IMG/VR virus record: IMGVR_UViG_2690316148_000011
Direction: 5' to 3' (one strand)
DNA length: 14,327 nt
Source: a virus
Taxonomy: Duplodnaviria > Heunggongvirae > Uroviricota > Caudoviricetes
Each line of letters begins with the position of its first letter. Position 1 is the first letter of the stretch. Made by a program: the position numbers and the translations under genes. The notes under the pieces are model-generated. The model ran no database searches. It was not told the origin of the DNA and was given only the letters and a program-made list of their open reading frames with translations. Shown here one piece after another: positions 1 through 14,327 of this stretch.

Positions 1-32
1 ATGGTAGTGTCCGCTATTGCCAGTACACCTCA
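1..32 (+). mobile_element. Terminal 32 nt of an IS3-family insertion sequence whose body lies left of the window
   Basis: Positions 1-32 are the exact reverse complement of 2822-2853, the orfB-proximal terminus (5'-TGAGGTGTACTGGCAATAGCGGACAC) of the IS3-family element at 2822-3959. Identity stops exactly at the terminal TG/CA dinucleotide (position 33 is not the complement of 2821). Confidence 0.6.
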
Positions 33-1400
33 AGTATCAGTTGCGCTCTGATTTGTTCCTTCATCTTCAAACACGCCCTTTGTAGTCAGGTATTCAGTAA
101 TGTATTTGTTCAGTGCCACAGGGTCTTTGTGAATGTCGATCGGACGTTCACGGACAAGGCCAAAAATAGTCTGGCGGTCGTAGCGAAGGGCATCAGGCTG
201 TTTGCGCATTGATGCCGAGATACGCTTCCAGTCTTCGCGGTCGTTGTCGATAACTTCATTTTTTGCCCAGCGATGGATGCTGCCGTCAATGTTTCCGGCA
301 TCCACATCACCAGGCCAGAGAGCGTAGGCCAGTTCGTCATCCAGTGTTTTCCATGTCTGCTTGTATTCGCGATGAATGGCAGCAATGGCCGGGCTGATTT
401 TTCCTGTTGAATTTTCAGTGTGCTGTTGATTGGCTCTGGCACGGGCGAGATCAACAACAGACGTGTATTTTCCGGTTTCCTTGCGTTCACCTTCGCGACA
501 TTTTTTCCAGATGCGCATCTCTGCCTGAATTTCTGGCCATTTTGCACCAGGCTTACATTTATGCTTAATCCACCCGATGGCATGCAGTTTAATCTCCGGA
601 CACATGGCGTTAACTTCTGGCATTTTCATCAACGCTTCAACGATATGTCCGTCGAATGTTGCCATGTCTTCCTGCAACAGTTCCTGCGCGCTAATCACCA
701 TATCAACGGTGATGTTTTCACATGTGTCGAACTTAACCATGACAGCGTTCTGTACTTCAGGGGCCAGCTTGTCAAAAGTGACGTTCATCGGTTCGGATTC
801 AGTCTCAACCGGGACAAAGGAAGCAGACTCCTCATCCCAGCGGTTTTCCTGCATATATTCAGCATCCCAGGAATCGAGGGCAGGGCGGGGTATACCAGGT
901 TTATCCTCGCAGACAATAAATTTATAAGCGCAGTCCTGAGCAGCCGGATAATGTTCCAGGAATTGCCAGTGAAATTTTGCGCGGGCGCGGNNNNNNNNNN
1001 NNNNNNNNNNNNNNNNNNNNNNNNNNNNNNNNNNNNNNNNNNNNNNNNNNNNNNNNNNNNNNNNNNNNNNNNNNNNNNNNNNNNNNNNNNNNNNNNNNNN
1101 NNNNNNNNNNNNNNNNNNNNNNNNNNNNNNNNNNNNNNNNNNNNNNNNNNNNNNNNNNNNNNNNNNNNNNNNNNNNNNNNNNNNNNNNNNNNNNNNNNNN
1201 NNNNNNNNNNNNNNNNNNNNNNNNNNNNNNNNNNNNNNNNNNNNNNNNNNNNNNNNNNNNNNNNNNCAGTTACCGGGAATTTTCTGTTCAGCTGCAGCAG
1301 CCACGCATTCTTTCATGGAGTTGTATACTCCGGTAACCAGTTCAGCTGGTTCGCCCGTATTAAGAATAACGGTCAGAACGAGTGCAAATGCTGTATTCAT
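30..1400 (-). CDS. Hypothetical phage protein; continuity across the N run is unverified, so this may be one gene or two
   Basis: Minus-strand ORF with protein-like composition, whereas the antisense ORF 420-1616 is F/L/S/C/H-rich. Start ATG 1398-1400 overlaps the stop of the upstream 62-aa ORF (ATGA). N-terminus is hydrophobic (MNTAFALVLTVILNTG). Stop codon TGA at 30-32 is supplied by the IS terminus. No family recognised. Confidence 0.5.
   Translation of the reverse strand: MNTAFALVLTVILNTGEPAELVTGVYNSMKECVAAAAEQKIPGNXXXXXXXXXXXXXXXXXXXXXXXXXXXXXXXXXXXXXXXXXXXXXXXXXXXXXXXXXXXXXXXXXXXXXXXXXXXXXXXXXXXXXXXXXXXXXRARAKFHWQFLEHYPAAQDCAYKFIVCEDKPGIPRPALDSWDAEYMQENRWDEESASFVPVETESEPMNVTFDKLAPEVQNAVMVKFDTCENITVDMVISAQELLQEDMATFDGHIVEALMKMPEVNAMCPEIKLHAIGWIKHKCKPGAKWPEIQAEMRIWKKCREGERKETGKYTSVVDLARARANQQHTENSTGKISPAIAAIHREYKQTWKTLDDELAYALWPGDVDAGNIDGSIHRWAKNEVIDNDREDWKRISASMRKQPDALRYDRQTIFGLVRERPIDIHKDPVALNKYITEYLTTKGVFEDEGTNQSATDT
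991..1266. other. Run of 276 N (assembly gap or masked sequence)
   Basis: Literal n characters. Length is a multiple of 3, so the apparent reading-frame continuity across it is not informative. Confidence 1.
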
Positions 1401-1585
1401 CGCCAGCATCCTTTTTGCATCAGACGCAAACGAGCCAGCATTGAAACAATGCATATTTTATTTAATGACTCCCGTTCGTGTTTTCTCTTGTTAATGGCAT
1501 CTTCAGTAAATACCGTGTTACTGATAGTGACACCAATTTCAAAACAACCTTCAGTCGTATTAACGTTTGGTAATAACGTTTCCAT
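1397..1585 (-). CDS. Hypothetical small protein (62 aa), third cistron-linker of the Rha operon
   Basis: ATG at 1583-1585 preceded by GAGGA with about 8 nt spacing, 10 nt after the Rha stop. Its stop overlaps the next start (ATGA). No recognisable domain. Confidence 0.4.
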   Translation of the reverse strand: METLLPNVNTTEGCFEIGVTISNTVFTEDAINKRKHERESLNKICIVSMLARLRLMQKGCWR

Positions 1586-1595
1586 TATCGCGTCC

Positions 1596-2153
1596 TCAAC
1601 AATGAATTTTGAGTAATTGCTCTACAGTCATATTTTTAATTGCGCCCCGGTTAACAAGAGTCCATCCCTGTTCTTCCAGATAAAACCGGAAAGTCTCCAT
1701 GGTACAGACCCGTGCGCCATCAGGAACGGTTTCGGTGAATCTGATGTTGCCGCGTTCGTCGAAGTGAACAACCAGGGTGCGGCCATCGCCTGGAATTATT
1801 TTGTCAGTGGGTGGGGTGTTATTCTGGCGCAGTTCGGCCTCCATGCGATCGAACTCAGCAATGTAGGCTTCTTTAAATGCAGCGGCTTTTTTGCCAGTGA
1901 ATCCCATCACCAGGAAAACGAAGCCGTTTTTGGTGATTTGGTACATCGGGCGTTTTTCGCCTTTGGCGTCAGTGTAGGTGACGTCCTCAAAATTGAGGGC
2001 GTTAAATTCAGGTGAGCATTCAGTATTTGCGATGGCACGTAACACATTGTCGTGACGCTTGCCAAAGAACTCTGCGATCGCAATAGACGTAGTGACAGCG
2101 CGACCATTTTCGATGGTTACGTCAGGGTGAGAAAGGGCAGGGATAGTAGCCAT
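1596..2153 (-). CDS. Rha-family phage regulatory protein (antirepressor-like)
   Basis: N-terminal region MATIPALSHPDVTIENGRAVTTSIAIAEFFGKRHDNVLRAIANT matches the Rha N-terminal domain signature (TTS..IAE.FGK.H.NVLR). ATG at 2151-2153 preceded by GAGGA. The ORF-track start at 2450 is rejected (see noticed_but_rejected). Confidence 0.8.
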   Translation of the reverse strand: MATIPALSHPDVTIENGRAVTTSIAIAEFFGKRHDNVLRAIANTECSPEFNALNFEDVTYTDAKGEKRPMYQITKNGFVFLVMGFTGKKAAAFKEAYIAEFDRMEAELRQNNTPPTDKIIPGDGRTLVVHFDERGNIRFTETVPDGARVCTMETFRFYLEEQGWTLVNRGAIKNMTVEQLLKIHC

Positions 2154-2320
2154 GATGGCATCCTCGAGTGATAAGTTAATTAACTCACCACCGAGGTTTT
2201 CCACGACCATAAGGGTGGTGAGACGTACAGGGGTGGAAATACCGGTCATCACGGAACCCGGCCAGCCTTGCGGTTGCCCTGCACGCCCCACCATAATGCG
2301 AATGTGGCTGTGCTTAACGC

Positions 2321-2345
2321 ATAAAAAAACCGCCTGAGCGCGGTT
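2321..2345 (-). terminator. Rho-independent terminator (minus strand)
   Basis: Minus-strand AACCGC-GCUCAG-GCGGUU hairpin (6-bp stem) followed by a U7 run (plus-strand A-run 2323-2329). Confidence 0.5.
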
Positions 2346-2397
2346 ATGCGCCGTGAATGATTTCGGGTTTCCACGCCCGGCACCCGTTTTATGAGGT
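2323..2397 (-). ncRNA. Candidate ~75-nt small RNA or leader transcript upstream of the Rha antirepressor gene (c4/sar-like position); unverified
   Basis: Promoter (2405-2433) and intrinsic terminator (2321-2345) on the same strand about 75 nt apart. The hairpin stem is preserved in the paralogous copy although loop and body bases differ. A UCAC-UUCG-GUGA tetraloop hairpin lies just upstream. Confidence 0.35.
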
Positions 2398-2404
2398 GCA
2401 GGTG

Positions 2405-2433
2405 CACTATAATTCCACCCGTTCTGGTTTTCA
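2405..2433 (-). promoter_or_regulatory. Sigma70-like promoter on the minus strand (-35 TTGAAA, 17-bp spacer, -10 TATAGT)
   Basis: Plus-strand tttcaa at 2428-2433 and actata at 2405-2410, separated by 17 nt. Identical in the second copy (4125-4153). Confidence 0.4.
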
Positions 2434-2864
2434 ATAGCTACATTCAACATTTTCTCTCACCTTTCATCACCGAAGTGAATTTTGTTGATGCGGTGCCTGG
2501 TGCCTCCAGGTGACGTTAACCAGTTAACAATTACAGTTGGCTTTCCCACCCAAACCAATAAGGACTAACATGACTTTTAACTGTGCCGCGTGCGCATAGC
2601 CGCATTCACCGCATCACAAAATTCACTTTAAAAAGGGCGGACATCAGCCAGCAATTAAACCGATGCCGCCAACTGGTACTTCACACAGCAATGTCGTTAT
2701 TTACAACCGGAAGCGCACTCCCACCATTTAAATTTCACAGACAAGACCGACTCTTTATGGATACCGGAAATGCGCCTTCGTGTTGTGCCCGGTTTTATTT
2801 CACCACCTCCGGGCTTTGGTATGAGGTGTACTGGCAATAGCGGACACTACCATTTGTTCTTTTT

Positions 2865-3683
2865 TTAAGCAGCCATCTGATGATATTTTTCCCTGAAGGC
2901 TGCCGGGGAGATATTCCCCAGACGAGAGTGACAACGCTGACGATTGTAGAAAATCTCAATGTATTCCCGTATTACTGAGATGGCTTCATCCCGGTTATTA
3001 AAACGATAGTGGCTCAGGCTCTCATTTTTCAGCGTTCCCCAGAAGCTTTCCATCGGAGCGTTGTCGTAACAGTTACCTTTACGCGACATTGATGTTTTCA
3101 GACCAGACTGCTCCTGTATGACCCGGTAATCGTATGCGCAGTACTGTGAACCTCGATCAGAGTGGTGGATTAGCCCGGCAGGTGGGCGCTGGCTCCTGAG
3201 CGCCATAAACAGGGCTTTACCTGTCAGCTCTTTTGTCATGCGCTCTCCCATGGCGTAGCCGACAATTTCGCACGTATAAACATCTTTGATGCCAGCGAGG
3301 TACAACCATCCCTCCTGTGTGGCAACATACGTCAGGTCCGCCACCCAGACCTGATTTGGTGCTGTAGGAGCGAACGTCTGGTTCAGCAGATTTGGCGCAA
3401 CTGGCAGATTGTGGTTCGAGTTCGTAGTCGCTCTGAACTTGCGTTTCTGCTTACAGCGTAGCCTTAGCTCCTTACGAAGACGTGCCAGTCGGTCACGACC
3501 AACGATGATGCCATTCTCTGCCAGCTCCGTCTGGAGCCGCCGGGTTCCATATGTTTCGCGAGTGCGGATATGTGCCACCTTAATCTCCAGTTTTAGCCGC
3601 TCATCACTTTGTTTTCTGTCTGAGGGTTCATGCTGTACCCAGTTGTAATAACCGCTCCTGGATACACCAAATACCTGACACAT
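2865..3683 (-). CDS. IS3-family transposase OrfB (DDE/integrase core), probably expressed as an OrfAB fusion by -1 frameshifting
   Basis: Motifs typical of the IS3 transposase catalytic domain (LIHHSDRGSQYCAYDY, SRKGNCYDNAPMESFW). I translated the orfB frame upstream of the first ATG by hand: it stays open to the A7G slippery run (about 3764-3772) inside orfA and is the -1 frame relative to orfA. Confidence 0.85.
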   Translation of the reverse strand: MCQVFGVSRSGYYNWVQHEPSDRKQSDERLKLEIKVAHIRTRETYGTRRLQTELAENGIIVGRDRLARLRKELRLRCKQKRKFRATTNSNHNLPVAPNLLNQTFAPTAPNQVWVADLTYVATQEGWLYLAGIKDVYTCEIVGYAMGERMTKELTGKALFMALRSQRPPAGLIHHSDRGSQYCAYDYRVIQEQSGLKTSMSRKGNCYDNAPMESFWGTLKNESLSHYRFNNRDEAISVIREYIEIFYNRQRCHSRLGNISPAAFREKYHQMAA

Positions 3684-3718
3684 CGCTTCAATGGGAAATT
3701 GTTGTCGCCATTGTTCGA

Positions 3719-3959
3719 TTAACGCGTATTTTTCAGCGACTCCTGTGCAAAATACGCTGTTGCTTTTTTTAATATATCTCGCTCAAGGCGAGCTTCATTT
3801 AACGCCTTACGCAGTTGCAGAATTTCAGATTCCAGTTCAGCCACCGTGCGGGAACCAGGAGTACCGAGCCCTTTTCTGGCGGCGGTAACCCATTGTCCTA
3901 AAGTGCCTTCAGGAAGAGATAATCGGGAAGCGCCTTCACTGATCGAAAGTTGATTTTCA
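3719..3959 (-). pseudogene. IS3-family OrfA, N-terminally truncated (HTH plus leucine-zipper region retained)
   Basis: Sequence ...LSISEGASRLSLPEGTLGQWV...ELESEILQLRKALNEARLERDILKKATAYF matches the C-terminal two-thirds of IS3-family OrfA. No start codon; the ORF runs into the n at 3960. Confidence 0.7.
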
Positions 3960-3960
3960 N

Positions 3961-4403
3961 ACCGGTCATCACGGAACCCGGCCAGCCTTGCGGTTGCCCT
4001 GCACATCCCACCATAATTTGAATGGAGCTGTGCATTACGCATAAAAAAACCGCTTCAGCGCGGCTATGCGCTCGAGTAACGTTCGGGTTTCCACGCCCGG
4101 CACCCGTTTTATAAGGTGCAGGTGCACTATAATTCCACCCGTTCTGGTTTTCAATAGCTACATTCAACATTTTCTCTCACCTTTCATCACCGAAGTGAAT
4201 TTTGTTGATGCGGTGCCTGGTGCCTCCAGGTGACGTTAACCAGTTAACAATTAACGCCGGATACAGGGAAACCCATAACCACCCGATACGGGGGAACTAA
4301 TCGCTTTTTAACTGTGCCGCGTGCGCTGAGCCGCATTCACCGCATCACAAAATTCACTTTAAAAAGGGCGGACATCAGCCAGCAATGAAACTGATGCCGC
4401 CAA
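3961..4403. repeat. Copy 2 of the ~430-bp duplicated module
   Basis: Aligns with 2241-2672 at a constant offset of 1720 for the first ~280 bp, then a divergent patch, then a second conserved block. Confidence 0.9.
4043..4117 (-). ncRNA. Second copy of the candidate small RNA; no downstream antirepressor gene because the truncated IS abuts it
   Basis: Same promoter hexamers (4125-4153) and a hairpin AGCCGC-GCUGAA-GCGGUU plus U-run at 4043-4065. Relative to copy 1 the changes fall in the loop and convert an A-U pair to G-U. Confidence 0.3.
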
Positions 4404-4601
4404 AGGTACCAATCAACATGGAGTGTTGTGGCGTGGTTGTCACTTAAGCGTATGGTCAACCTGACAACCCGGTGTCCTCAACGGGGAAGGAATAACTCCG
4501 CCATACTTACCGCCGCGTCATTTCGCGTTGTGTGCCTGCTTTTAACCACGTCAGGCGAGGTGGTATCCTTCTTATCCCGAATAACCAAGAAGGAAATCTA
4601 T

Positions 4602-4802
4602 ATGACTAAAGAAGAATTTGTCTCTTATATTTTTGATAAAACGGTTGAAATGTATGCCGCTACTTACGGGTCCTGTAATCCTCTGAATAAACCAGAGGGA
4701 AAAGATGATTTCGACAAAATTTACCGCTTCTTGGAGGACCGCTATATCAAAAGCTTAGAGGACGCAGGGATCAAATCCCCAGTGAAGTCACCATTGTCCT
4801 GA
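4602..4802 (+). CDS. Hypothetical small protein (66 aa)
   Basis: ATG at 4602 preceded by AAGGA with 7 nt spacing; AT-rich; its 3' end overlaps the convergent 125-aa ORF by about 30 nt. No recognisable domain. Confidence 0.45.
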   Translation: MTKEEFVSYIFDKTVEMYAATYGSCNPLNKPEGKDDFDKIYRFLEDRYIKSLEDAGIKSPVKSPLS

Positions 4803-5148
4803 GAACTTGCAGAACGTCATGATCATAACTTCCATCCAAACCGCGACGGCGAATTGCTTCTCGTATTACCGGAAGCAGTTCGCTGGAAATCTCGGTGCAT
4901 ATTTCACCTGATAATACGCTTGGCTCAAGTGAGAATATTGGTGAACTTACGGTCTTGGTCTCGACAGTTTCAGAGTCAGTGCCAACATTATAAAGCTCAA
5001 CGAAAGCGGTCTTGATTTTCCGGGCCAGATCTTTTGCTGGCTCGCTTGCAATATCTTTCCCGATTTCTCGCAGCACAGAATGCAATGTATGAGCTGCTGT
5101 TTTCTGTACATCAGACGGTAAATCTTTAAATTCCATCGTCAGCCTCAT
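4771..5148 (-). CDS. Hypothetical protein (125 aa), second gene of a leftward PL-position operon
   Basis: Start ATG overlaps the stop of the upstream small ORF (TGATG); AT-rich relative to flanking DNA. No recognisable domain. Confidence 0.55.
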   Translation of the reverse strand: MRLTMEFKDLPSDVQKTAAHTLHSVLREIGKDIASEPAKDLARKIKTAFVELYNVGTDSETVETKTVSSPIFSLEPSVLSGEICTEISSELLPVIREAIRRRGLDGSYDHDVLQVLRTMVTSLGI

Positions 5149-5300
5149 CAGTCAGTGTTTCTGGCTAACCAGCAACGCGCGCCAGATTCGGTTTTAAACG
5201 TTTTGCTTTTGGTATACGTCATGGCGGTAAACGTTCCATCCTGGTTAGGGAACACGCCGCACACCAGAGATTCGTTGTTGCCAAGATCGATAGTATCCAT
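5148..5300 (-). CDS. Hypothetical small protein (about 50 aa), first gene of the leftward PL-position operon
   Basis: ATG at 5298-5300 preceded by GGGGA with about 12 nt spacing. The ORF-track version begins further upstream at 5354. Confidence 0.4.
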   Translation of the reverse strand: MDTIDLGNNESLVCGVFPNQDGTFTAMTYTKSKTFKTESGARCWLARNTD

Positions 5301-5479
5301 GCTGACCTCATTTCCCCTTAACGCCGGGGTGGCGGAACAAAAAACCTGCTGCATAGTTAAAGATTGAACCCTGCCGTCATGTTCTTACGCCTCGGGCTGG
5401 CTACTTAACCCCTGACCACTGTCTGGTAACTCGAAGTATTGCCCTGCATTCTGTGGGGCGGGGTGGGTTGACGCCTGAA

Positions 5480-5522
5480 AAAATAGCATCATTATTTTTT
5501 GATGTAAATAGCATCGCTATTG
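5480..5522 (-). promoter_or_regulatory. OL-like region: two 17-bp operator-like palindromes (5481-5497, 5506-5522) overlapping a leftward sigma70-like promoter
   Basis: AAATAGCATCATTATTT and AAATAGCATCGCTATTG, centres 25 bp apart; minus-strand -35 TTTACA (plus 5503-5508) and -10 TATTTT (plus 5480-5485) with 17-nt spacer. Confidence 0.5.
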
Positions 5523-5535
5523 TTTTTGTTGGGGC

Positions 5536-5560
5536 AAGAAAAAACCACCCTAAGGTGGTT
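5536..5560 (-). terminator. Rho-independent terminator downstream of the ParE-like gene (minus strand)
   Basis: Minus-strand AACCACC-UUAG-GGUGGUU hairpin (7-bp stem) followed by UUUUUUCUU, 17 nt after the toxin stop codon. Confidence 0.55.
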
Positions 5561-5576
5561 CTGTCGGCGGGAATAA

Positions 5577-5867
5577 TTAACTGTTTTTGCCTGGATACTG
5601 TCTTCGAGAATGCACAATATTTACTACTTCTATGCTTGATGCTGTTACTCGGTAAAGGATGATGTAGTTAGGATGAGTTACAATTTCACGAAGACCAAGA
5701 ACTCGCTCGCTTGGAGGATACAGGTAAGGATGCTCTGTGAGCGGCAAAACGGATGTTTCAATTCGAATTTTCATTCTGCGTGCTGCCGCGGGATTTTCTT
5801 TAGCTATGTAGGCTACGATCTGGCGCAAATCATCACGAGCAGATGGTAGCCATAAAACGGGTAACAT
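5577..5867 (-). CDS. ParE/RelE-family type II toxin (ParE2-like)
   Basis: 96-aa protein with ParE/RelE-like N-terminus (MLPVLWLPSARDDLRQIVAYI) and C-terminus (IILYRVTASSIEVVNIVHSRRQYP); start overlaps the antitoxin stop (TAATG). Confidence 0.85.
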   Translation of the reverse strand: MLPVLWLPSARDDLRQIVAYIAKENPAAARRMKIRIETSVLPLTEHPYLYPPSERVLGLREIVTHPNYIILYRVTASSIEVVNIVHSRRQYPGKNS

Positions 5868-6061
5868 TATTCACCTCTGTGAGTTGCAGCAGCAATTTGG
5901 GCAATAATTTGTTCCATTTCCGCCATTACCTCATCATGCGGAATCGCCGGGCGGGGATCCGCGAGGCTTGCTGCTACTTTGGCCCGCAGCCATTCGTTGT
6001 AACTATTTTCTTGCTCAACTGTCTCAAATTCTGAAACCATTGGGGAAAGGACTGTACTCAT
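5867..6061 (-). CDS. Small antitoxin, PaaA2-like
   Basis: 64-aa acidic protein immediately upstream of, and translationally coupled to, the ParE-like gene; AGGAG RBS 9 nt upstream. N-terminal SPMVSEFETVEQENSYNEWLRAKVAASLADPRPAIPHDEV resembles the PaaA2 antitoxin of E. coli O157 as I recall it. Confidence 0.75.
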   Translation of the reverse strand: MSTVLSPMVSEFETVEQENSYNEWLRAKVAASLADPRPAIPHDEVMAEMEQIIAQIAAATHRGE

Positions 6062-6080
6062 TTTACATATCTCCTCTGAT

Positions 6081-6581
6081 TTAGGCGCGACGGCCTTTTT
6101 GTGCAGCTAACCACCGCGCAACCGTACGATCCATTGATTCTTTTTTATCTTTCATCTCCTGAAGCATGTGTTCTTGATCTTCTTTCGGAAAAGCTCTGAA
6201 CGTATGGATTAAATCTCGTTCCATCGGCTCTACGGCAAACGGTAGTTCATCCTCTGTTTGTTCTGTGTCTGCTGGTAATGCGACTATGTTATCTTGCTGT
6301 GGTTCTCGACAATACATCCTTGCAATTTGCAGCAAATCTACCATGTCTGGCCTGATTGACTCAGGGGGAACTTTCAGTAAGCCAGCAAACTTTAGAACAG
6401 CCTCAAGGTTTAGTGGGGTTTGACCATTTAGGTAGTGACTTACCGCCCCTTGTGTTGAAAACCCCATAATTTCCGCCGCACGTTCCTGAGTCAATCCCAA
6501 CTGAGATTTCTTTGCCATCCAGATTTCTTTCAGTCTTCTGGCGGCGTTGAGGTCGGTGTCTGACAATGATTTTCTTTTCAT
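6081..6581 (-). CDS. HTH (XRE/cI-like) transcriptional repressor, PaaR2/RacR-like; probable prophage immunity repressor
   Basis: HTH motif LTQERAAEIMGFSTQGAVSHYLNG; no peptidase S24 domain; first gene of the repressor-antitoxin-toxin operon; divergent from a Cro-like gene across an operator-bearing intergenic region. The ORF-track start at 6611 is GTG without an SD, so ATG 6579-6581 was chosen. Confidence 0.75.
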   Translation of the reverse strand: MKRKSLSDTDLNAARRLKEIWMAKKSQLGLTQERAAEIMGFSTQGAVSHYLNGQTPLNLEAVLKFAGLLKVPPESIRPDMVDLLQIARMYCREPQQDNIVALPADTEQTEDELPFAVEPMERDLIHTFRAFPKEDQEHMLQEMKDKKESMDRTVARWLAAQKGRRA

Positions 6582-6615
6582 ACATCCAATTCTAATAAGA
6601 TTGCTAATCACTTTG

Positions 6616-6657
6616 AAATAGCATCACTATTTACTTTTAAAAATAACAGTGCTATTA
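6616..6657. promoter_or_regulatory. OR-like region: two operator-like palindromes (6616-6632; inverted degenerate copy 6641-6657) between the divergent repressor and Cro-like genes
   Basis: AAATAGCATCACTATTT (perfect 6-bp arms) and, on the other strand, AATAGCACTGTTATTTT; centres 25 bp apart, the same spacing as the OL-like pair. Promoter hexamers are only weakly recognisable (for example TTTACT ... ATTAAT). Confidence 0.5.
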
Positions 6658-6692
6658 ATTATGCATTGGTAACACATCACATAGGGCGGATT

Positions 6693-6956
6693 ATGAATCT
6701 TGGAGAATATTTGCATCATTTTCATATAACCCAGAGTTCATTTGCTGAGATTGTTGGCGCATCCCAAGGGATGGTCAGCCACGTTATAACGGGGCGTGCA
6801 AAACTTACAGGAGAAAAAATATTACGTTGGTGTGAAGCAACGGGATGGGTGGTGACCCCACATGAGATTGACAGTAAAACCTACCCCAACCCAACTGACG
6901 GCTTGCCTGCTGAGTTTCAGGCTAACACACAACCATCGGCGGGGGTTGATTCATGA
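6693..6956 (+). CDS. Cro-like HTH regulator (YdaS family)
   Basis: 87-aa protein with HTH (SQGMVSHVITGRAKLTGEKILRW); ATG at 6693 with AGGG RBS; divergent from the repressor; overlaps the next gene (ATGA). Confidence 0.7.
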   Translation: MNLGEYLHHFHITQSSFAEIVGASQGMVSHVITGRAKLTGEKILRWCEATGWVVTPHEIDSKTYPNPTDGLPAEFQANTQPSAGVDS

Positions 6957-7378
6957 AAATCAAGCATGAACACATCCGCATGGCGATGAAAGCCTGGGCG
7001 CATCCGGACGGTGAAAAAGTTCCGGCAGCTGAAATAACCAGGGTTTATTTCGAACTGGGAATGACGTTTCCGGTTCTGCATAACGACAGCAAGCACAACA
7101 CGCTTTATCTCAACACCCAAAAGATTTTCCGTTGGCTGGATAAAGACACCCCTGACGCTGTTGAAAAAATTCAGGCGTTGTTACCTGCGATCGAAAGGGC
7201 AATGCCACCTCCGCTGGTGGCTCGAATGCGCAGCCACAGTTCAGCTTATTTTCGGGAACTGGTGGAGACGCATGAACGACTGGTGAGAGACGCTGATGAT
7301 TTTGTCGCAGTGGCAATCGCCGGTTTCAATCAGATGAACCGTGGTGGCCCGGCAGGAAATGCTGTGGCAGTACATTGA
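6953..7378 (+). CDS. YdaT-like protein (Rac-type early-region protein, reported as toxic in Rac)
   Basis: 141 aa, N-terminus MKIKHEHI...; position directly downstream of the Cro/YdaS-like gene matches the Rac racR-ydaS-ydaT arrangement. Family assignment is from memory of that locus. Confidence 0.55.
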   Translation: MKIKHEHIRMAMKAWAHPDGEKVPAAEITRVYFELGMTFPVLHNDSKHNTLYLNTQKIFRWLDKDTPDAVEKIQALLPAIERAMPPPLVARMRSHSSAYFRELVETHERLVRDADDFVAVAIAGFNQMNRGGPAGNAVAVH

Positions 7379-7449
7379 CTGACAATAGCCATATCGAATC
7401 GCTCCCGGCAACTCGTGAGTAAAAAGATTCGGTATCAGAAGAGGTGAGT

Positions 7450-8514
7450 ATGGCTAACGCCTGGCTCAGATTATGGCATGACATGCCAAATGACCCTAAG
7501 TGGCGAACAATTGCCAGGGTGTCAGGGCAGCCAATTGCAACAGTGATGGCAGTGTATATCCACCTCCTGGTGAGCGCGTCACGAAATGTCACGCGAGGTC
7601 ACATTGATGTCACGACAGAAGATTTGGCAAGTGCGCTCGACGTGACAGAAGAGGTAATTGATTCAATTTTGCAGACGATGCAGGGGCGGGTACTTGATGG
7701 TGATTTAATCACTGGATGGGAAAAACGCCAGGTGCTTAAAGAGGACAACGGCAATATTTCGCAAACCGCAAAATCTCCTGCAGAGCGCAAGAGGGCGCAG
7801 CGAGAGAGGGAAAGAAAGCGGGAACAAAATGGCGATTGTCACGGCGCGTCACGAAATGTCACGCACATGTCACGACGAGTCACGACAGATACAGATAAAG
7901 ATACAGATAAAGAAGATCAAAACACTATGGTCCATGGCGTAAAAAACGCCACGAACCAGGCAGGGGATGTTCAGACCGTCAATCCTGGTCAGCCAGCAGG
8001 CTCGACACCGGAAGCCGATTCAGCGTATGCGCTGAAAGCCGATTCGGGCGCTGTGCAGCAGGTGATGACCGCAAGGCCGGAGCAATCACTCCAACTGCAG
8101 CAGCCTGAAGCCGATTCCGCCATTCAGCGGGAAGCCGATCGGGTAGCCCCGGAAAACACCGGGCAGCCTGTGGGACGAGTGGATTATCCGGATGTGTTCG
8201 AACAGGTCTGGCGGGAATACCCGTTGCGTGCCGGGGCAAACCCGAAGAAATCCGCATTCAGTGCCTGGAAGGCCAGATTGCGCGAGGGGGTGCCACCAGA
8301 GACCATGCTGGATGGTGTGAGGCGTTACGCGAGATACCTGGCGGCGACCGGGAAAGCGGGAACGGAATTTGTTCAGCGAGCGACGACGTTTTTTGGGCCG
8401 GACCGGAATTTTGAAAACCCCTGGTTGCTCCCGGTAAGCGGCACGAACAACCAGCGTTGTGTGAATCATATTTCTGAACCGGATACCGAAATTCCGCCGG
8501 GATTCAGGGGGTGA
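7450..8514 (+). CDS. Phage replication initiation protein (lambda O-like / YdaU-like replisome organiser)
   Basis: ATG at 7450 with AGAGGTGAG RBS; contains two iteron clusters within its coding sequence (as ori-lambda lies within O); C-terminal region YPDVFEQVWREYPLRAGANPKKSAFSAWKARL resembles phage replication-protein C-terminal domains; followed immediately by the DnaC-like gene. Confidence 0.6.
   Translation: MANAWLRLWHDMPNDPKWRTIARVSGQPIATVMAVYIHLLVSASRNVTRGHIDVTTEDLASALDVTEEVIDSILQTMQGRVLDGDLITGWEKRQVLKEDNGNISQTAKSPAERKRAQRERERKREQNGDCHGASRNVTHMSRRVTTDTDKDTDKEDQNTMVHGVKNATNQAGDVQTVNPGQPAGSTPEADSAYALKADSGAVQQVMTARPEQSLQLQQPEADSAIQREADRVAPENTGQPVGRVDYPDVFEQVWREYPLRAGANPKKSAFSAWKARLREGVPPETMLDGVRRYARYLAATGKAGTEFVQRATTFFGPDRNFENPWLLPVSGTNNQRCVNHISEPDTEIPPGFRG
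7578..7614. repeat. Iteron cluster A: four GTCAC(G/A) repeats phased at 10-11 bp
   Basis: GTCACG at 7578, 7588, 7609 and GTCACA at 7598. Confidence 0.6.
7838..7912. repeat. Iteron cluster B: five GTCACG repeats phased at 10-11 bp, followed by a tandem ATACAGATAAAG x2; candidate replication origin
   Basis: GTCACG at 7838, 7848, 7858, 7869, 7879. The 19-mer gcgtcacgaaatgtcacgc is shared exactly with cluster A. Tandem 12-mer at 7889-7912. Confidence 0.6.
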
Positions 8515-8520
8515 TGTGGC

Positions 8521-9267
8521 ATGAAAAACATTGCGGCAGCCGGGGTTCTTGAACGTATTCACAGACTTGCACCACAGGGGGCGGTTCCACCGTACCGGAC
8601 GGTGGAGGAGTGGCGGGAATGGCAACTTGCTGAAGGACGAAAACGCAGCGAGGAGATTAACCGCCAGAATCGCCAGTTGCGGGTGGAAAAAATCCTGAAT
8701 CGTTCGGGCATCCAGCCTCTGCACAGCAAATGCTCGTTTGCGAATTATCAGGTGCAGAACGACGGGCAAAAATACGCGCTGAGCCAGGCCAAATCCATAG
8801 CTGACGAACTGATGACCGGGTGCACGAATTTTGTGTTCAGCGGTAAAACCGGCACCGGGAAAAATCACCTTGCAGCGGCGATGGGTAACTGGCTGATGGC
8901 GAAGGGGCGCAGCGTGATTATCGTCACCGTGTCTGATGTCATGAGCGTGTTGCATGACAGCTACGACAACGGCAAATCCGGTGAAAAATTTTTACAGGAG
9001 CTTTGCGGGGTTGATTTGCTGGTCCTGGATGAAATAGGCATTCAGCGGGAGACGAAAAACGAGCAGGTGGTATTGCACCAGATAATTGATCGCCGGACAG
9101 CATCACTGTGCAGTGTCGGGATGTTAACAAACCTGAATCATGCCGCAATGAGCACGCTTCTTGGTGAGAGGATTATGGACCGCATGACCATGAACGGTTG
9201 TCGGTGGGTGACGTTTAACTGGGATAGCTGGCGTTCAAATGTCAGCTTTCCGGGAGTTGTGAAGTAA
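8521..9267 (+). CDS. DnaC-like replicative helicase loader (IstB-like AAA+ ATPase; YdaV-like)
   Basis: Walker A GKTGTGKNHLAAAM and Walker B LLVLDEIG; 248 aa; positioned directly after the O-like gene. Confidence 0.85.
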   Translation: MKNIAAAGVLERIHRLAPQGAVPPYRTVEEWREWQLAEGRKRSEEINRQNRQLRVEKILNRSGIQPLHSKCSFANYQVQNDGQKYALSQAKSIADELMTGCTNFVFSGKTGTGKNHLAAAMGNWLMAKGRSVIIVTVSDVMSVLHDSYDNGKSGEKFLQELCGVDLLVLDEIGIQRETKNEQVVLHQIIDRRTASLCSVGMLTNLNHAAMSTLLGERIMDRMTMNGCRWVTFNWDSWRSNVSFPGVVK

Positions 9268-9288
9268 TTTTTGTTGGAGGATGTTTTA

Positions 9289-10014
9289 ATGGAAACTGTA
9301 TTTGACGCACTGAAAGCACTGAAAAGAGCCTCTTCACATGTGGTGGCGTCCCGCCTTGGAATCAGCCGTGAAGATGCGGTCAACGAACTGTGGAAACTGA
9401 AGCGCCGTGGTGAAGCGGATAACAAGGGTTCGATGTGGTGGCTGATTCAGGCTGGTGAAAGTGAACCAGTGTCACCGGTACCGAAAGTGACAGCGCAAAT
9501 GCTGACTGAGGCGATTGAACAACATGGCCCACAAACGGCGGATGAGCTGGCACTGATGTTCGGGATTACCTCCCGCCGGGCGAATTCATCGCTGGCCATG
9601 GCAATCAGCAAAGGGCGTCTGATTCGCGTGAATCAGGGCGGTAAATTTCGGTACTGCATACCGGGCGCTGATTTACCGGCAGAGCCGAAAGCCGCATCCA
9701 TAGCGGAAACGGATGGTAAAGTCTTTCCTCAGCCAGCAGGTGTTGCGTTACCGGTACAGGAAGCTGCAACACAGGAAGAAATTAAAACAGAAACTGTGGC
9801 GGACATTGTGCAGTCGTTGCCATCGTTCACCGAAACGCAAGCGGATGACCTGGTTTTACCATCGCTGCATATGGCAAACCGCGAACTGCGTCGGGCGAAA
9901 AGTCATGTCCAGAAGTGGGAGCGTGTCTGCGCCGCGTTGCGGGAGCTGAACAAGCACCGGGATATTGTTCGACAGATTGTCGATTCCTCCGGTCGTATTG
10001 TGTCGGAAAAGTGA
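9289..10014 (+). CDS. Hypothetical phage protein (241 aa), possibly with two winged-helix-like segments
   Basis: ATG at 9289 preceded by GGAGGA with 7 nt spacing (the ORF-track start at 9271 is TTG); protein-like composition. No confident family. Confidence 0.55.
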
Positions 10015-10029
10015 TTGCCGGGGGCGCTT

Positions 10030-10452
10030 ATGGCAAAAGTATTTACACAGGAAGAGCGGGAAAAAATTAAGGGGCAGGTTGTTGAACTCGTACGCCAGAG
10101 TGGGCGCGAGACGTTACGACAACTGGAAGCTAAAACCGGGGCGACAAGATATTTAATAAGCGTTCTCGCCAGAGAGCTGGTTGCCAGTGGGGATGTATAC
10201 AACTCTGGCTACGGGTTATTCCCGTCTGAACAGGCTCGTAAGGACTGGCAAAACGCCCGCAAAAAACTCTCGAGGGCAAAGCTGAAGAAACCATCTGTGG
10301 TTGATCCGGACCTTATCTGGTCATTACCAGACGGAGAAATACGCCGCTACGACAGACATCAGAACATAATCTGTCGCGAGTGCCGGAAGAGTGAAGTTAT
10401 GCAGCGTGTACCGGCTTTCTATCAGGGTGATTTTCAGGAGGCGGTACTGTGA
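10030..10452 (+). CDS. Hypothetical phage protein (140 aa)
   Basis: ATG at 10030 (the ORF-track start at 10015 is TTG); tightly packed in the rightward operon. No recognisable domain. Confidence 0.5.
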   Translation: MAKVFTQEEREKIKGQVVELVRQSGRETLRQLEAKTGATRYLISVLARELVASGDVYNSGYGLFPSEQARKDWQNARKKLSRAKLKKPSVVDPDLIWSLPDGEIRRYDRHQNIICRECRKSEVMQRVPAFYQGDFQEAVL

Positions 10453-10509
10453 GTGAAATTAGCTATCAGGCTTCAATTACCGCTGGCATTCGCATCAAAG
10501 GAGAGGAGC

Positions 10510-11019
10510 ATGGAAATAAAACCAGAAGATGAGTTAAGCAATATTGTTTTATTTCCGGTAAAAGAGGATAACCCTCGTAATCAGGTTAATTTTCTTTATG
10601 AGCCATCGGAAAGACCATATTGCCATCACGCTTCTGTCCGGGTTGACGAAAAAGAGCGTCAGGTCCGCTGTAAAATNNNNNNNNNNNNNNNNNNNNNNNN
10701 NNNNNNNNNNNNNNNNNNNNNNNNNNNNNNNNNNNNNNNNNNNNNNNNNNNNNNNNNNNNNNNNNNNNNNNNNNNNNNNNNNNNNNNNNNNNNNNNNNNN
10801 NNNNNNNNNNNNNNNNNNNNNNNNNNNNNNNNNNNNNNNNNNNNNNNNNNNTTTGACTGGATGCTCTCTGTGGCGAAAAGAGAAACCAGACTGGCAGATG
10901 ATGTAAGGCTCTTGCGCCAGGAGGAGCGGGAAAGGCGAAAAAATATAGAAAAGCTAATCCAGATTGAGCGTAATGCGAAAGCGCGGATACGCAGGGTGAC
11001 AAAATATAGCCCCGAATAA
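10510..11019 (+). CDS. Hypothetical protein interrupted by an N run; possible Cys/His-containing N-terminal segment
   Basis: ATG at 10510 preceded by AAGGAGAGGAG. The 175-nt N run (10677-10851) is not a multiple of 3, so frame continuity across it is unknown. C-terminal part is charged and coiled-coil-like. Confidence 0.4.
   Translation: MEIKPEDELSNIVLFPVKEDNPRNQVNFLYEPSERPYCHHASVRVDEKERQVRCKXXXXXXXXXXXXXXXXXXXXXXXXXXXXXXXXXXXXXXXXXXXXXXXXXXXXXXXXXXXFDWMLSVAKRETRLADDVRLLRQEERERRKNIEKLIQIERNAKARIRRVTKYSPE
10677..10851. other. Run of 175 N (assembly gap or masked sequence)
   Basis: Literal n characters. Confidence 1.
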
Positions 11020-11158
11020 TCAAGGTTATTTCTGGAAGTCAAGTCGTGAGTGATGAGGACTAACAAATACGGTGAACTCGATAAAGAGATTCAGGACGAA
11101 CTGGAGGCCAGGAATGATTGACAAATCACCAAGTGAGTTCAGCTACAAAGATTTATTG

Positions 11159-11174
11159 TCATAACGGGTTATGA
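11159..11174. promoter_or_regulatory. Perfect 7-bp inverted repeat with 2-bp spacer (TCATAAC-GG-GTTATGA) about 60 bp upstream of the methyltransferase gene; candidate operator
   Basis: Read directly from the sequence; overlaps a weak promoter-like stretch (TTATGA ... TGaTATTCT). The loop is too tight for an RNA hairpin, so a protein-binding site is more likely. Confidence 0.3.
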
Positions 11175-11233
11175 GATCGACTTGGTGCGTGATATTCTTC
11201 GGGCCAGTTTGCTATGCGCCACCATGAGATGTT

Positions 11234-13066
11234 ATGGCCCGCATGTTTGATACATTAGGATTTTACATTATGAATGTGCAACATTTTGATTTTTTTACAG
11301 ATAATGAGTTTTCTAATCTGGAAAGATATCAAACTTGTAAAGCCATGGCCAAAGGTTATGCGGGCAATTACAAAACCGGGCAGTCAAGGTTGATGCATGC
11401 CCGCTCATACTGCTTCAGCATCGTAGCTGCATATTGGGATACCCTTGCAAAAAAGCAAAAAAGCAGCATTAAAATGAGGGCAGTACCGCACACTGTTTAC
11501 ATAGAAGACATTCCATGTGATGCACGCGAGCTCGCTGAACGAACAGGTGAGCTTATTGCTCAATTTCCGGCGGAGGACGCTGGATATCTGATTGGGTCAA
11601 TTTATACGGTAATGCTGCCATCCGCTTACCGTTCGGAATTGGGGGCTTACTATACCCCCCCACCTTTGGTAGCGCGTCTCTTGGACCTGGCTGAAAAGTC
11701 TGGTGTTGATTTTTCTCATGCATCGGTTATTGATCCTGCGTGTGGTGGCGGTGCATTTTTGGCACCAGTAGCCATTCGAATGTTAAAAAAAGACAAGGGG
11801 TCTTCCCCTGAATGGATGTTGAGGAGAATCAGTCGTCGTTTAAAGGGGATAGAAATCGATCCATTTGCGGCTTGGATGAGTTTGGTATTGCTCGAATCTG
11901 TACTAATGCCACTATGTGTAAAGGTAAAACGTAGATTGCCTGAAGATACAATTATTGTTGCTGATGCGCTTCAGCAAGATAAATTTTCTGGTTATGATCT
12001 TGTGGTAGGGAATCCGCCTTACGGACGTGTCACTCTCGATATTAAAACGAGAGAAAAATATTCTCGTTCGTTATTTGGTCATGCAAATCTATATGGATTG
12101 TTCACCGACTTAGCTGTTCGCATGGTTAAAGAGAAAACAGGAGTTATTGCATTTCTTACGCCAACTTCTTTTCTTGGTGGGCAGTATTTCACCGCGCTGC
12201 GAACCCTTTTGACCGAAAAAACTACTCCGTATGCCCTTGATTTCGTCACTGACAGGGATGGGGTCTTTGACGATGTTCTCCAGGAAACAATGTTGACAGC
12301 ATTCAAGGCGGGAGAACATAAAGTTCGGGCCCAGGTATCCTCACTTGTCCCTAAGGGGTTGAACAAAGCAAAAATTGAGAAAATAGGTAATGTTGATATA
12401 GAAAAAGGTGGAGCAACGTGGCTTTTGCCACGCGTTAAAGATGATGCCTGTTTTCTTAATGTATTAAAACAGATGTCTACGCGTTTAGCTGATCTGGGAT
12501 ACTCAGTCTCTACAGGTCAGTTAGTCTGGAATCGATTTAAGTCGCAGTTGCGTACGACGAAAGGAAAAAATAGCTACCCATTAGTCTGGGCGGAATCAAT
12601 AACTTCAGCTGGTTTTCGTTTTAGTGCAGACAGAAAAAATCATGTTCCCTATATCGATATAACCCCACAACAGGGTTTCCTTGTGACAAAATCTGAATGT
12701 GTGCTTGTTCAGCGGACAACATCGAAGGAACAGGACAGAAGGATTTTAGCGGCAATTTTACCTCAGGGATTTATAGATGAAACTGGTGGCGTAGTAGTTG
12801 AAAACCATATTAATATTGTATATTCAAACGGATTGTTCTCTGCGGTTCGCCCTGATGTTATTGATATGCTACTTAATTCGCATGTTGTCGATCGGGCGTT
12901 CAGGTGTATAAGCGGAAGTGTTGCTGTTTCGGCCTATGAATTGAATTCAATCCCGTTGCCTTCTCTGGAGCAGGTGATGGAGATTCAATCGTTAATTGAT
13001 GCTGGCGTCCACAGACGGATTATTGAGAGAACTATCGCTGGTTTCTATGGAGTGATGATTGCATGA
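11234..13066 (+). CDS. N6-adenine DNA methyltransferase, gamma-class (motif I before motif IV), Type II R-M modification subunit
   Basis: Motif X/I YYTPPPLVARLLDLA ... VIDPACGGGAFL followed by motif IV VVGNPPYGRV; long C-terminal region consistent with a target-recognition domain. AT-rich compared with the prophage core. Start uncertain: ATG 11234 (weak SD) or ATG 11269 (AGGA upstream). Confidence 0.85.
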   Translation: MARMFDTLGFYIMNVQHFDFFTDNEFSNLERYQTCKAMAKGYAGNYKTGQSRLMHARSYCFSIVAAYWDTLAKKQKSSIKMRAVPHTVYIEDIPCDARELAERTGELIAQFPAEDAGYLIGSIYTVMLPSAYRSELGAYYTPPPLVARLLDLAEKSGVDFSHASVIDPACGGGAFLAPVAIRMLKKDKGSSPEWMLRRISRRLKGIEIDPFAAWMSLVLLESVLMPLCVKVKRRLPEDTIIVADALQQDKFSGYDLVVGNPPYGRVTLDIKTREKYSRSLFGHANLYGLFTDLAVRMVKEKTGVIAFLTPTSFLGGQYFTALRTLLTEKTTPYALDFVTDRDGVFDDVLQETMLTAFKAGEHKVRAQVSSLVPKGLNKAKIEKIGNVDIEKGGATWLLPRVKDDACFLNVLKQMSTRLADLGYSVSTGQLVWNRFKSQLRTTKGKNSYPLVWAESITSAGFRFSADRKNHVPYIDITPQQGFLVTKSECVLVQRTTSKEQDRRILAAILPQGFIDETGGVVVENHINIVYSNGLFSAVRPDVIDMLLNSHVVDRAFRCISGSVAVSAYELNSIPLPSLEQVMEIQSLIDAGVHRRIIERTIAGFYGVMIA

Positions 13067-14145: not shown

Positions 14146-14297
14146 CCAAAGTTTGATATCCGCCACGCCCTGAAGGATGGGGGTTTTACGGTGCACTGGA
14201 TAAAAAATCGGTTTCATAGATTTGCCCACCGTGGTATACGCCTGCGATAAAAACTTTATTGTCATCAACGGCAAAAGCAATAATTGTTCTGTGGCGG

Positions 14298-14327
14298 GGT
14301 GATGCTGCCAACTTACTGATTTAGTGT
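14298..14327 (+). mobile_element. IS1: First 30 nt of the IS1 left terminal inverted repeat (element continues beyond the window end)
   Basis: GGTGATGCTGCCAACTTACTGATTTAGTGT matches the canonical IS1 end as I recall it. Confidence 0.75.

Follow-up and report, generated by a model that had tools for sequence, protein, structure and literature searches.

In a Shigella chromosome, prophage remnants cut by insertion sequences are to be expected. IS600, an IS3-family element present in multiple copies in Shigella and in some E. coli, has TG...CA ends, an orfB with an rve domain and frameshifted orfA/orfB genes. Among prophage regulatory modules, the immI-type system of P1/P7 combines a c4 antisense RNA with an antirepressor, and Gifsy-1 carries the IsrK-AnrP module. 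The authors of a Velvet/SSPACE/GapFiller pipeline, which was applied to 299 S. sonnei genomes, noted that false joins may result from greedy tools of this kind (Page et al. 2016, PMC5320598). In the stretch of DNA analysed here (14,327 nt, hereafter the window) a 2.8-kb segment with a Rha antirepressor-type gene appears to be bracketed by inverted IS600 ends. The bracketed segment is most likely not a real feature and comes from a jump of a short-read scaffold between near-identical copies: we put at about 0.8 the probability that the window reflects a mis-assembly superimposed on the ordinary decay of Shigella prophages by IS600 and IS1. Its parts were traced to two loci, designated Q (beside ynfE) and R (near ddlA/phoA).

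A repeat search of the window found positions 1-32 and 2822-2853 to be inverted arms of 32 nt with 100 % complementarity; the second-longest inverted pair, of 37 nt, is just 70 % complementary. By our own arithmetic, a perfect 32-nt inverted match is expected in 14.3 kb by chance about 5e-12 times (~1e8/4^32). A complete 1,264-bp copy of IS600 (L001, 601-1864) was used as the reference. Both arms are the first 32 nt of its IRR, the end beside the orfB stop, and the identity ends precisely at the terminal TG/CA. IRL and IRR each start with TGAGGT and match at 20/32 positions, in keeping with the imperfect terminal inverted repeats of the IS3 family; IRR occurs twice in the window and IRL lies outside it. 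The first-pass annotation, made from the sequence alone, had proposed an exact reverse complement ending at TG/CA and one end of the same IS3-family element present twice in opposite orientation, and in all of this it was correct.

The right-hand copy (2822-3959, minus strand) corresponds to nt 1-1138 of IS600 counted from IRR and is 99.8-100 % identical to it (1138/1138 against the copies in the finished chromosome L032, 99.8 % against E. coli copies annotated as IS600). It comprises the complete orfB (2865-3683), with Pfam matches to rve, rve_2, rve_3 and HTH_21, and orfA cut at 3959, so that its first ~20 codons are missing. In relatives orfA/orfB are annotated with a 'programmed frameshift', as expected from the -1 frameshift of the IS3 family, and PGAP names the product 'IS3-like element IS600 family transposase'. 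The window copy lacks 126 nt including IRL because the contig stops that far before the IRL end; it is biologically no different from IS600 and is incomplete only for this reason. The left-hand arm (1-32, plus strand) is the IRR tip of a copy running leftward past the scaffold end. IS600 is flanked by a 3-bp target-site duplication in the reference copy (AAC/AAC). No such duplication was found at the relevant copies, which are flanked by ...ACT/ATA... at Q and by ATC/TAC (left) and TTT/GGG (right) at R; among the copies examined, a near-duplication (CAC/TAC) surrounds IS600 in L035 only. The absence of target duplications indicates later IS-IS recombination or deletion and not another family. 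In having no target duplications and in bordering DNA that was deleted or rearranged, the copies resemble those known from IS-driven prophage decay in Shigella.

The whole window is one short-read draft scaffold of Shigella sonnei, CXDF01000117.1 (L006; 14,327 bp; assembly GCA_001253095.1), built of four contigs separated by N. A run of 276 N (991-1266) interrupts the segment 33-2821, a single n at 3960 links contig 1267-3959 to contig 3961-10676, and a third gap of 175 N occupies 10677-10851. In L022, a finished S. sonnei chromosome, the true spacings at the two long runs are 252 and 22 nt. Masking by the data provider was considered as the origin of the N runs and rejected, since NCBI's copy of the record has them too and they do not match the true distances in length. 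The window thus covers an entire scaffold whose ends lie in multicopy repeats, the left one 32 nt inside IS600 and the right one 30 nt inside IS1. The IS1 tip (14298-14327) is the same as the opening 30 nt of IRR in two IS1 copies of L022, and to the right of the corresponding point L022 has a full 768-bp IS1 followed by a mannitol-dehydrogenase gene. The base at which the window begins also terminates seven sister-draft contigs (given as L007 and L010-L014), and two further ones end 5 or 10 nt deeper into the left IS600. An attempt to deduce a single k-mer size from the repeat tips was dropped, as tips of 32, 30 and 44 nt (the two scaffold ends and the start of contig 3961-10676) are inconsistent with one size.

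Locus Q has the order ynfE'-IS600-exonuclease'-DUF1482-dicB-Rha_Q-...-PstI-like restriction-modification system-IS1. To the left of the window sequence L022 carries a full 1,264-bp IS600 (14916-16179) and then a truncated ynfE-like gene; a complete copy beyond position 1, in this orientation, is what the first-pass annotation had predicted. The 5' part of a YdfE-type exonuclease gene cut by IS600 (33-990, minus strand) follows, for which the stop codon (30-32) is provided by the IS600 end. The gene is annotated as an exonuclease in E. coli relatives, and the called 274-aa product matches Pfam YdfE_C. An IS600 in the same gene of E. coli was considered as the same insertion and rejected, its site being offset by 2 nt. 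Next come a DUF1482 gene (1267-1454, minus strand; PF07358, E=1.2e-12), with its 3' end lost in the gap, dicB (1397-1585, minus strand; Pfam DicB, E=1.7e-36) and the body and 3' end of the Rha/Ash antirepressor-type gene (1596-2240, minus strand; Pfam Phage_pRha and Phage_ASH). The window is 100 % identical to L022 over 1-990 (L022 13958-14947), 1267-1693, which includes the whole DUF1482/dicB region 1267-1585, and 1684-2240.

At Q the window sequence 1-2240 runs straight into that of 3961 onward in three finished chromosomes (L022, L016 and L018) and in the sister draft L007. In the three chromosomes 1684-2240 is identical over 557/557 positions, and the homologue of 3961 abuts 2240 without a gap. 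The locus Q continuation (3961-4647, minus strand) consists of a 44-nt repeat, the Q-type Rha 5' end (to 4170), an IsrK-like RNA (4043-4119, minus strand; Rfam isrK, 61.2 bits) and the upstream region of Q type. From 4005 to 4647 the identity to L022 is 99.4 %, and in L022 this part directly adjoins the homologue of 2240. The true 5' end of the locus-Q Rha/Ash gene therefore lies at 3961-4170, and with 1596-2240 and 3961-4170 joined the frame is open over 284 codons. No exact copy of this joined Q-type protein was present in a collection of ~15 billion proteins. In finished genomes the Q Rha gene has either an IS1 that divides it or a frameshift, and IS1 insertions and deletions at Q vary among finished S. 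sonnei genomes. The Shigella flexneri homologues all couple the Q-type N-terminus to the Rha body of the window. A homology search with the 70 N-terminal Rha residues matched only short partial proteins; its best match, P0010, led to E. coli prophages just ~82 % identical and was uninformative.

Locus R, as found in the finished chromosomes CP180280.1 (L032) and CP179997.1 (L033), is a Rha_R module of 1,212 bp enclosed by two complete IS600 copies in inverted orientation, each of 1,264 bp and 99.7-99.8 % identical to the reference. Window positions 2179-3959 are identical to R of L032 at 1,781/1,781 positions, and the same architecture is present in L033. The part at 2285-2821 (minus strand) contains the first Rha_R codons, an IsrK-like RNA (2323-2399, minus strand; Rfam isrK, 67.7 bits) and a Rac-type upstream region reaching to the IS600 insertion point; it is identical to L032 at 537/537 positions but only 85-90 % identical to Q. 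The Rha body at R in L032 and L033 is a different paralogue, ~84 % identical to window 1684-2178. In uninterrupted Rac-type relatives the homology with the window stops at 2820 and the site reads ...CTTTGGT|GGTATC...; E. coli complete genomes gave only such uninterrupted relatives of 2285-2820 and the IS600 in the exonuclease gene. In a sister draft the upstream R IS600 lies in its native Rac-type context with the near-duplication CAC/TAC, and it therefore arose by simple insertion. The IS600 at the Rha_R 3' end replaces the last codons and adjoins gam, much as the scar of a deletion would. The native R protein, of 295 aa and with its gene fused to the IS600 end, was found on 7 contigs, including 2 complete chromosomes.

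The passage from Q to R within contig 1267-3959 takes place in a stretch of 106 nt (2179-2284) that is identical in Q and R of this strain. The last Q-specific differences from R lie at or before 2178; 2179-2284 is identical to R of L032 at 106/106 positions and its part 2179-2240 matches Q of L022 as well. Most of a C4-like antisense RNA gene (2211-2298, minus strand; Rfam C4, 76.3 bits) falls within it. Q and R also have in common a near-identical block, longer than the 106-nt stretch, that covers the IsrK-like RNA. The 44 nt that open contig 3961-10676 (3961-4004) are an exact copy of 2241-2284, and the two window copies first differ at 2285/4005. Past 3960 IS600 would read ...TTTTCA-AGAACCG; the window instead has ACCGGTCATC, found in the Rha gene at position 2241. 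These 44 nt are R-type and just 87 % identical to Q of finished genomes, and therefore some genuine Q/R gene conversion occurred in the ancestry of the strain. The hybrid 284-aa Rha protein produced by the switch is found, among ~15 billion proteins, on CXDF01000117.1 only.

The most probable history is the following. S. sonnei carries two or more decayed remnants of lambdoid prophages whose Rha-antirepressor modules are paralogous. In building contig 1267-3959 the assembler probably followed the 106-nt repeat out of Q into R and went on into the IS600 there, and the true continuation of Q would then have been attached behind the single n, with 44 nt duplicated. The junctions at the left IS600 tip, in Q, and at the right IS600, in R, are both real, but the two would not be neighbours and nothing would be bracketed. 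Three observations agree with this: the window is a whole contig with ends in IS600 and IS1, its adjacencies are contradicted by finished and sister assemblies (L022, L016, L018 and L007 for Q, L032 and L033 for R), and the switch lies within the exact repeat 2179-2284. The first-pass annotation had taken 33-2821 as one segment, a composite-transposon passenger or an invertible segment, and this is not supported by the finished genomes, which have its left junction in Q and its right one in R. Its other suggestion, that the left copy is an artefact of a contig ending inside a repeat, holds as to the contig end; the left junction is nevertheless real, and the artefact probably lies in the Q-to-R switch and the n-join at 3960. 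We infer, for this strain, both a computational rather than a recombinational switch and the program responsible for the join. Assemblies of the Velvet/SSPACE/GapFiller kind (PMC5320598) are similar in having ends inside IS600/IS1, estimated N runs, one duplicating join and a break base shared among sisters. Unlike the usual repeat breaks of such assemblies, the mis-threading here would have gone through a 106-nt paralogous stretch and not through an IS, and the software of record is conjecture. A similar single-N join is present in the sister scaffold L031 (identical to L034), where 220 nt of IS600 are duplicated around a foreign fragment.

Of the other explanations the least improbable, though still unlikely, is a real recombinant: in this isolate the Rha 5' regions of the two loci, being paralogous, would have undergone homologous recombination that joined Q-left to R-right. 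Contig 1267-3959 is unbroken across the switch, the R-type 44 nt opening contig 3961-10676 show Q/R exchange in the lineage, and both loci vary between finished S. sonnei genomes through IS-associated deletions and rearrangements. If it were true, the 2.8-kb exo'-dicB-Rha segment would be enclosed by two IS600 copies in inverted orientation, recombination between these copies could invert or remove it, and, with the 106-nt C4-RNA repeat as the site of exchange, short conserved regulatory-RNA genes would serve as recombination anchors between prophage remnants. Against this, Q-right follows at once in the scaffold and has 44 nt in common with the switch region, which is the picture of two branches leaving one repeat. 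The switch points, before 2249 in contig 1267-3959 and at 2284/2285 in contig 3961-10676, are unlike one reciprocal crossover. Moreover, Q is intact in four other assemblies, the hybrid protein was found on no other contig, and an exchange between a ynfE-flanked and a ddlA/phoA-flanked locus would need a large chromosomal rearrangement.

Much less probable is a composite transposon in which two IS600 copies mobilise the antirepressor module, either as the 2.8-kb window unit or as the 1.2-kb R unit. The two complete inverted copies around 1,212 bp at R, present in two finished chromosomes, do have the required appearance. The whole R unit, with outer flanks ...GCATC and GGGAT..., is however not surrounded by a 3-bp duplication (ATC, GGG; the corresponding flanks of the 2.8-kb unit lie outside the window), neither IS has an intact duplication of its own, and the upstream copy is a simple insertion whereas the 3' copy resembles a deletion scar. 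A unit with its IRR ends inward would have two IRL ends outside, and IS3-family transposition, as in IS911 and IS3, takes one IRL and one IRR. For the 2.8-kb unit the finished genomes place the two IS junctions in different loci, and a flanking IS pair exists only at the 1.2-kb R unit. The first-pass annotation had suggested looking for the segment at another locus, and no second location came to light: none of 72,556 plasmids and 50,697 phages contained it (coverage of 1267-2821) at ≥~85 % identity over >75 % of its length, and none of 5,426 E. coli genomes had it flanked by IS600 or showed the window arrangement. Only the native prophage orientation, with Rha transcribed toward the exonuclease/int side, was seen in the window and in a few finished genomes (L022, L032 and L033). 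A literally correct scaffold is just as hard to accept: a 5'-truncated IS600 would end at its nt 1138 and pass straight into a second, incomplete Rha copy at codon 70, giving a 1.7-kb local duplication-insertion, the n being an uncalled base. A single ambiguous base separates the parts, and truncated IS copies are frequent in Shigella and E. coli annotations. The fusion, though, falls exactly where the 44-nt copy of 2241-2284 begins, which would be a coincidence if the join were illegitimate, IS600 shares no homology with the Rha gene at that point, and the arrangement occurs in no E. coli complete genome. Outside the window the 2821/2822 junction was found only in the sister draft L031 and at locus R: an exact scan with the pattern 2806-2845 gave no match in species-representative genomes or JGI metagenomes and one among viral contigs, the S. 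sonnei draft scaffold L031, and two finished S. sonnei chromosomes have the junction at R.

A mis-threaded scaffold remains the preferred reading, and the regulatory modules may account for the repeat through which it would have arisen. As in P1/P7 immI-type and Gifsy-1 IsrK-AnrP modules, C4 and IsrK RNAs lie at the 5' end of each Rha/Ash gene (Rfam, Pfam); the likeness consists of sequence and structure matches and has limited relevance. Conservation of the C4/IsrK RNA modules suggests, as a conjecture, why Q and R share exact repeats.

The case calls for caution, since real IS junctions lying close together on a draft scaffold may belong to different chromosomal neighbourhoods in finished genomes. 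In practice, a join made by a single N, or a contig that ends some tens of bases inside an IS, should serve as a warning. Protein databases already list the product of the hybrid gene as an entry of its own, a 'Rha family phage regulatory protein' of S. sonnei (WP_053007936.1). Loci Q and R themselves are remnants cut by IS600 and IS1, like other decaying Shigella prophages, and the biology is nothing past the known IS600/IS1-driven decay of these prophages.

The window starts with ATGGTAGTGTCCGCTATTGCCAGTACACCTCA, the exact reverse complement of 2822-2853, and a repeat search returned the two arms (1-32 and 2822-2853) at 100 % identity; by calculation, an inverted match this perfect over 32 nt would be expected approximately 5e-12 times by chance in 14.3 kb. 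Segment 2822-3959 was 99.8 % identical to thousands of E. coli loci annotated as 'IS3-like element IS600 family transposase'. Against a complete 1,264-bp IS600 copy used as the reference (601-1864 of locus L001), both arms corresponded to the first 32 nt of IRR, the end beside the orfB stop. Since IRL and IRR of IS600 itself agree at only 20 of 32 positions, the first-pass annotation correctly deduced that the same IS end is present twice in opposite orientation. The IS600 copy of the window (orfB on the minus strand) ends at 3959, 126 nt before IRL.

The window corresponds to the whole of record CXDF01000117.1 (14,327 bp) of the Shigella sonnei assembly GCA_001253095.1 and comprises four contigs (1-990, 1267-3959, 3961-10676 and 10852-14327); 276 N, one n and 175 N lie between them in the public record itself. 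The two N runs are gap estimates, since the true distances in a finished genome are 252 and 22 nt. On the right the scaffold closes with the initial 30 nt of an IS1 end, so both scaffold ends, the left one in IS600, stop just inside multicopy insertion sequences. The minus-strand 5' fragment of a YdfE-type prophage exonuclease gene at the left end, whose stop codon is supplied by the IS end, was also found on ~1-kb contigs of eight sister assemblies (accessions CXBJ to CXDK); six stop at the identical base, 32 nt into IS600, and two stop 5 or 10 nt deeper.

DUF1482 and dicB (minus strand), an Ash+Rha orf of 284 codons (1596-2450, minus strand) and IS600 are followed rightward by the early region of a lambdoid prophage, comprising a DUF1391 gene, a ParE toxin/PaaA2 antitoxin pair (5577-6061, minus strand) directly adjoining a cI-like repressor gene, a cro-like gene, a YdaT gene, a replication gene (356-aa orf) and IstB/DnaC-like, DUF1627 and DUF977 genes. 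The replication orf carries GTCACG(N4) repeat clusters at 7578-7616 and 7838-7886, which resemble the iterons of phage replication origins. The prophage remnant also carries a PstI/BsuBI-type restriction-modification pair (11234-14145, plus strand) that was conserved in every S. sonnei Q locus seen; its methylase (610 aa, Eco57I/N6_Mtase domains) is of the N6-adenine type and its restriction endonuclease (360 aa) of the BsuBI/PstI type.

Locus Q, a prophage remnant beside ynfE, was reached through the exact 121-aa protein encoded by 4771-5136, found on complete Shigella chromosomes such as CP000038.1 (which we take to be S. sonnei Ss046) and CP026802.1 (L022). In the orientation of the window L022 contains ynfF and a truncated ynfE-like gene, a full IS600, the truncated exonuclease gene with DUF1482 and dicB, IS1, rha, IS1, the 121-aa gene through to the PstI-like restriction-modification pair, and IS1 followed by a mannitol-dehydrogenase gene. 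Segments 1-990 and 1267-1693 were 100 % identical to L022, and the left junction is the same base for base, with a complete IS600 behind it in the predicted orientation. The left IS600 copy is therefore real, and the suggestion that it was only an assembly artefact was not borne out. A complete IS600 in the same orientation also truncates the homologous exonuclease gene in E. coli 2013C-4830 (L002, 5769-7032) and 2012C-4227, 2 nt from the S. sonnei site; either a preferred target was hit independently, or the two descend from one old insertion that later changed.

Segment 1684-2240 was identical (557/557) to L022 and two further finished Q loci, L016 and L018, and in all three the base after the homologue of 2240 is the homologue of 3961; the sister draft contig L007 is likewise unbroken across this point. 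The identity of 4005-4647 to these loci was 99.4 %, that of 2241-2672 to locus Q only 85-88 %. Joining 2240 to 3961 leaves the reading frame of Rha_Q, the paralogue of this locus, intact. In the finished S. sonnei genomes IS1 has inserted at 4639-4647 and ~1684-1693, with duplications AAACGGTTG and AACCGGAAA; the window isolate has neither, and its Q locus has accordingly decayed less.

Searched for in viral contigs, the right junction turned up in a single scaffold, the sister draft CXDK01000186.1 (L031), in which sequence matching 2179-2860 with 2 mismatches is joined to another Rha body, with ~90 differences relative to window 1612-2178. The product, Rha_R, has 295 aa with the last residues read from the IS600 end (WP_052974466.1, S. 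sonnei); it is encoded on 7 contigs, two of them the complete chromosomes CP180280.1 (L032) and CP179997.1 (L033). There, locus R is a prophage remnant adjoining gam-xis-int and genes with ddlA-, iraP- and phoA-type domains. Two complete IS600 copies (6366-7629 and, inverted, 8842-10105 in L032) with IRR ends pointing inward, in L033 as well, enclose 1,212 bp with Rha_R and its upstream region. Segment 2179-3959 was identical to L032 at 1,781/1,781 positions. The replication-to-Q gene block left of the Rha_R module is inverted relative to the gam-xis-int side in both chromosomes, which suggests an IS600-mediated inversion.

The contig 1267-3959 therefore holds Q sequence as far as 2178, sequence shared by the two loci at 2179-2240, and R-type sequence from 2241. 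Beyond the single n, sequence resumes with ACCGGTCATC..., which opens another, diverged copy of 2241-2672 (90-99 % identity); the first 44 nt of this copy equal 2241-2284, and it is Q-type from 4005. From the make-up of these two contigs, loci Q and R of the window strain share 106 identical bases (2179-2284). This repeat overlaps a C4-like antisense RNA gene (2211-2298, Rfam, 76 bits); IsrK-like RNAs were found at 2323-2399 (68 bits) and 4043-4119 (61 bits), all on the minus strand, which accounts for the previously annotated putative sRNA. The conserved RNA genes coincide with exact Q/R repeats and overlap each Ash+Rha orf over its first ~80 codons, so the start called at 2450 may be over-extended. 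By sequence and structure the arrangement resembles the P1 c4-ant and Gifsy-1 IsrK-AnrP modules.

Most probably, the bracket around 33-2821 is artefactual and reflects wrong threading of a draft scaffold whose ends lie in repeats. In the simplest reading the 106-nt repeat would have carried the assembler from locus Q over into locus R, the contig would have run on into the IS600 of locus R, and the true Q continuation would have been attached behind as a separate contig with one n. In support, Q-right comes directly next in the scaffold itself; the hybrid 284-aa Rha was found on the window contig only; the S. flexneri homologues all have a Q-type N-terminus on the Rha body of the window; and L031 has single-N joins and a 220-nt IS600 duplication around a foreign fragment. 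Its joins lie at 1044, 3595 and 9606; one joins IS600 nt 772 to a piece of another transposase-like gene, after which comes IS600 nt 553-1264, and a third Rha paralogue is attached in front. A true Q x R exchange in the isolate is unlikely: the R-type 44 nt heading the third contig differ from the Q locus of finished genomes and indicate that gene conversion between the paralogues occurred at some time, but the two apparent switch points do not fit a single reciprocal crossover, which also favours mis-threading.

Nor was 33-2821 supported as a composite-transposon passenger or invertible segment, as had been proposed: its junctions lie in different loci and share no DNA stretch in any finished genome, so no pair of IS600 copies flanks the 2.8-kb unit there, as a composite transposon would need. 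At locus R, complete IS600 copies in inverted orientation do enclose the 1.2-kb unit, but the data speak against movement of the whole. Neither the unit nor either IS600 is flanked by a 3-bp duplication. The upstream IS600 is a simple insertion, since a sister draft shows it in native Rac-type context with the near-duplication CAC/TAC, and the other takes the place of the final Rha_R codons and borders gam, a junction that looks like a deletion scar. No copy of such a unit was found on plasmids, in phages or elsewhere, and the native orientation alone was observed among the few finished genomes.

Mis-threading is further supported by the description of the Sanger Velvet/SSPACE/GapFiller pipeline, from which we infer that the record came: it was applied to 299 S. 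sonnei genomes, whose assemblies averaged 405 contigs, and SSPACE and GapFiller are noted to be greedy, so that false joins are possible (PMC5320598). GapFiller lengthens contig edges base by base into gaps (PMC3446322), which would explain the long unambiguous walk into IS600. The hybrid orf has the RefSeq accession WP_053007936.1 (two S. sonnei entries), probably an assembly artefact recorded as a protein. L031 is also an IMG/VR 'viral' contig; the same kind of jumble has spread into a viral database. The inverted 32-nt repeat is real, and what remains beyond the probable artefact is ordinary IS600/IS1 erosion of Shigella prophages.
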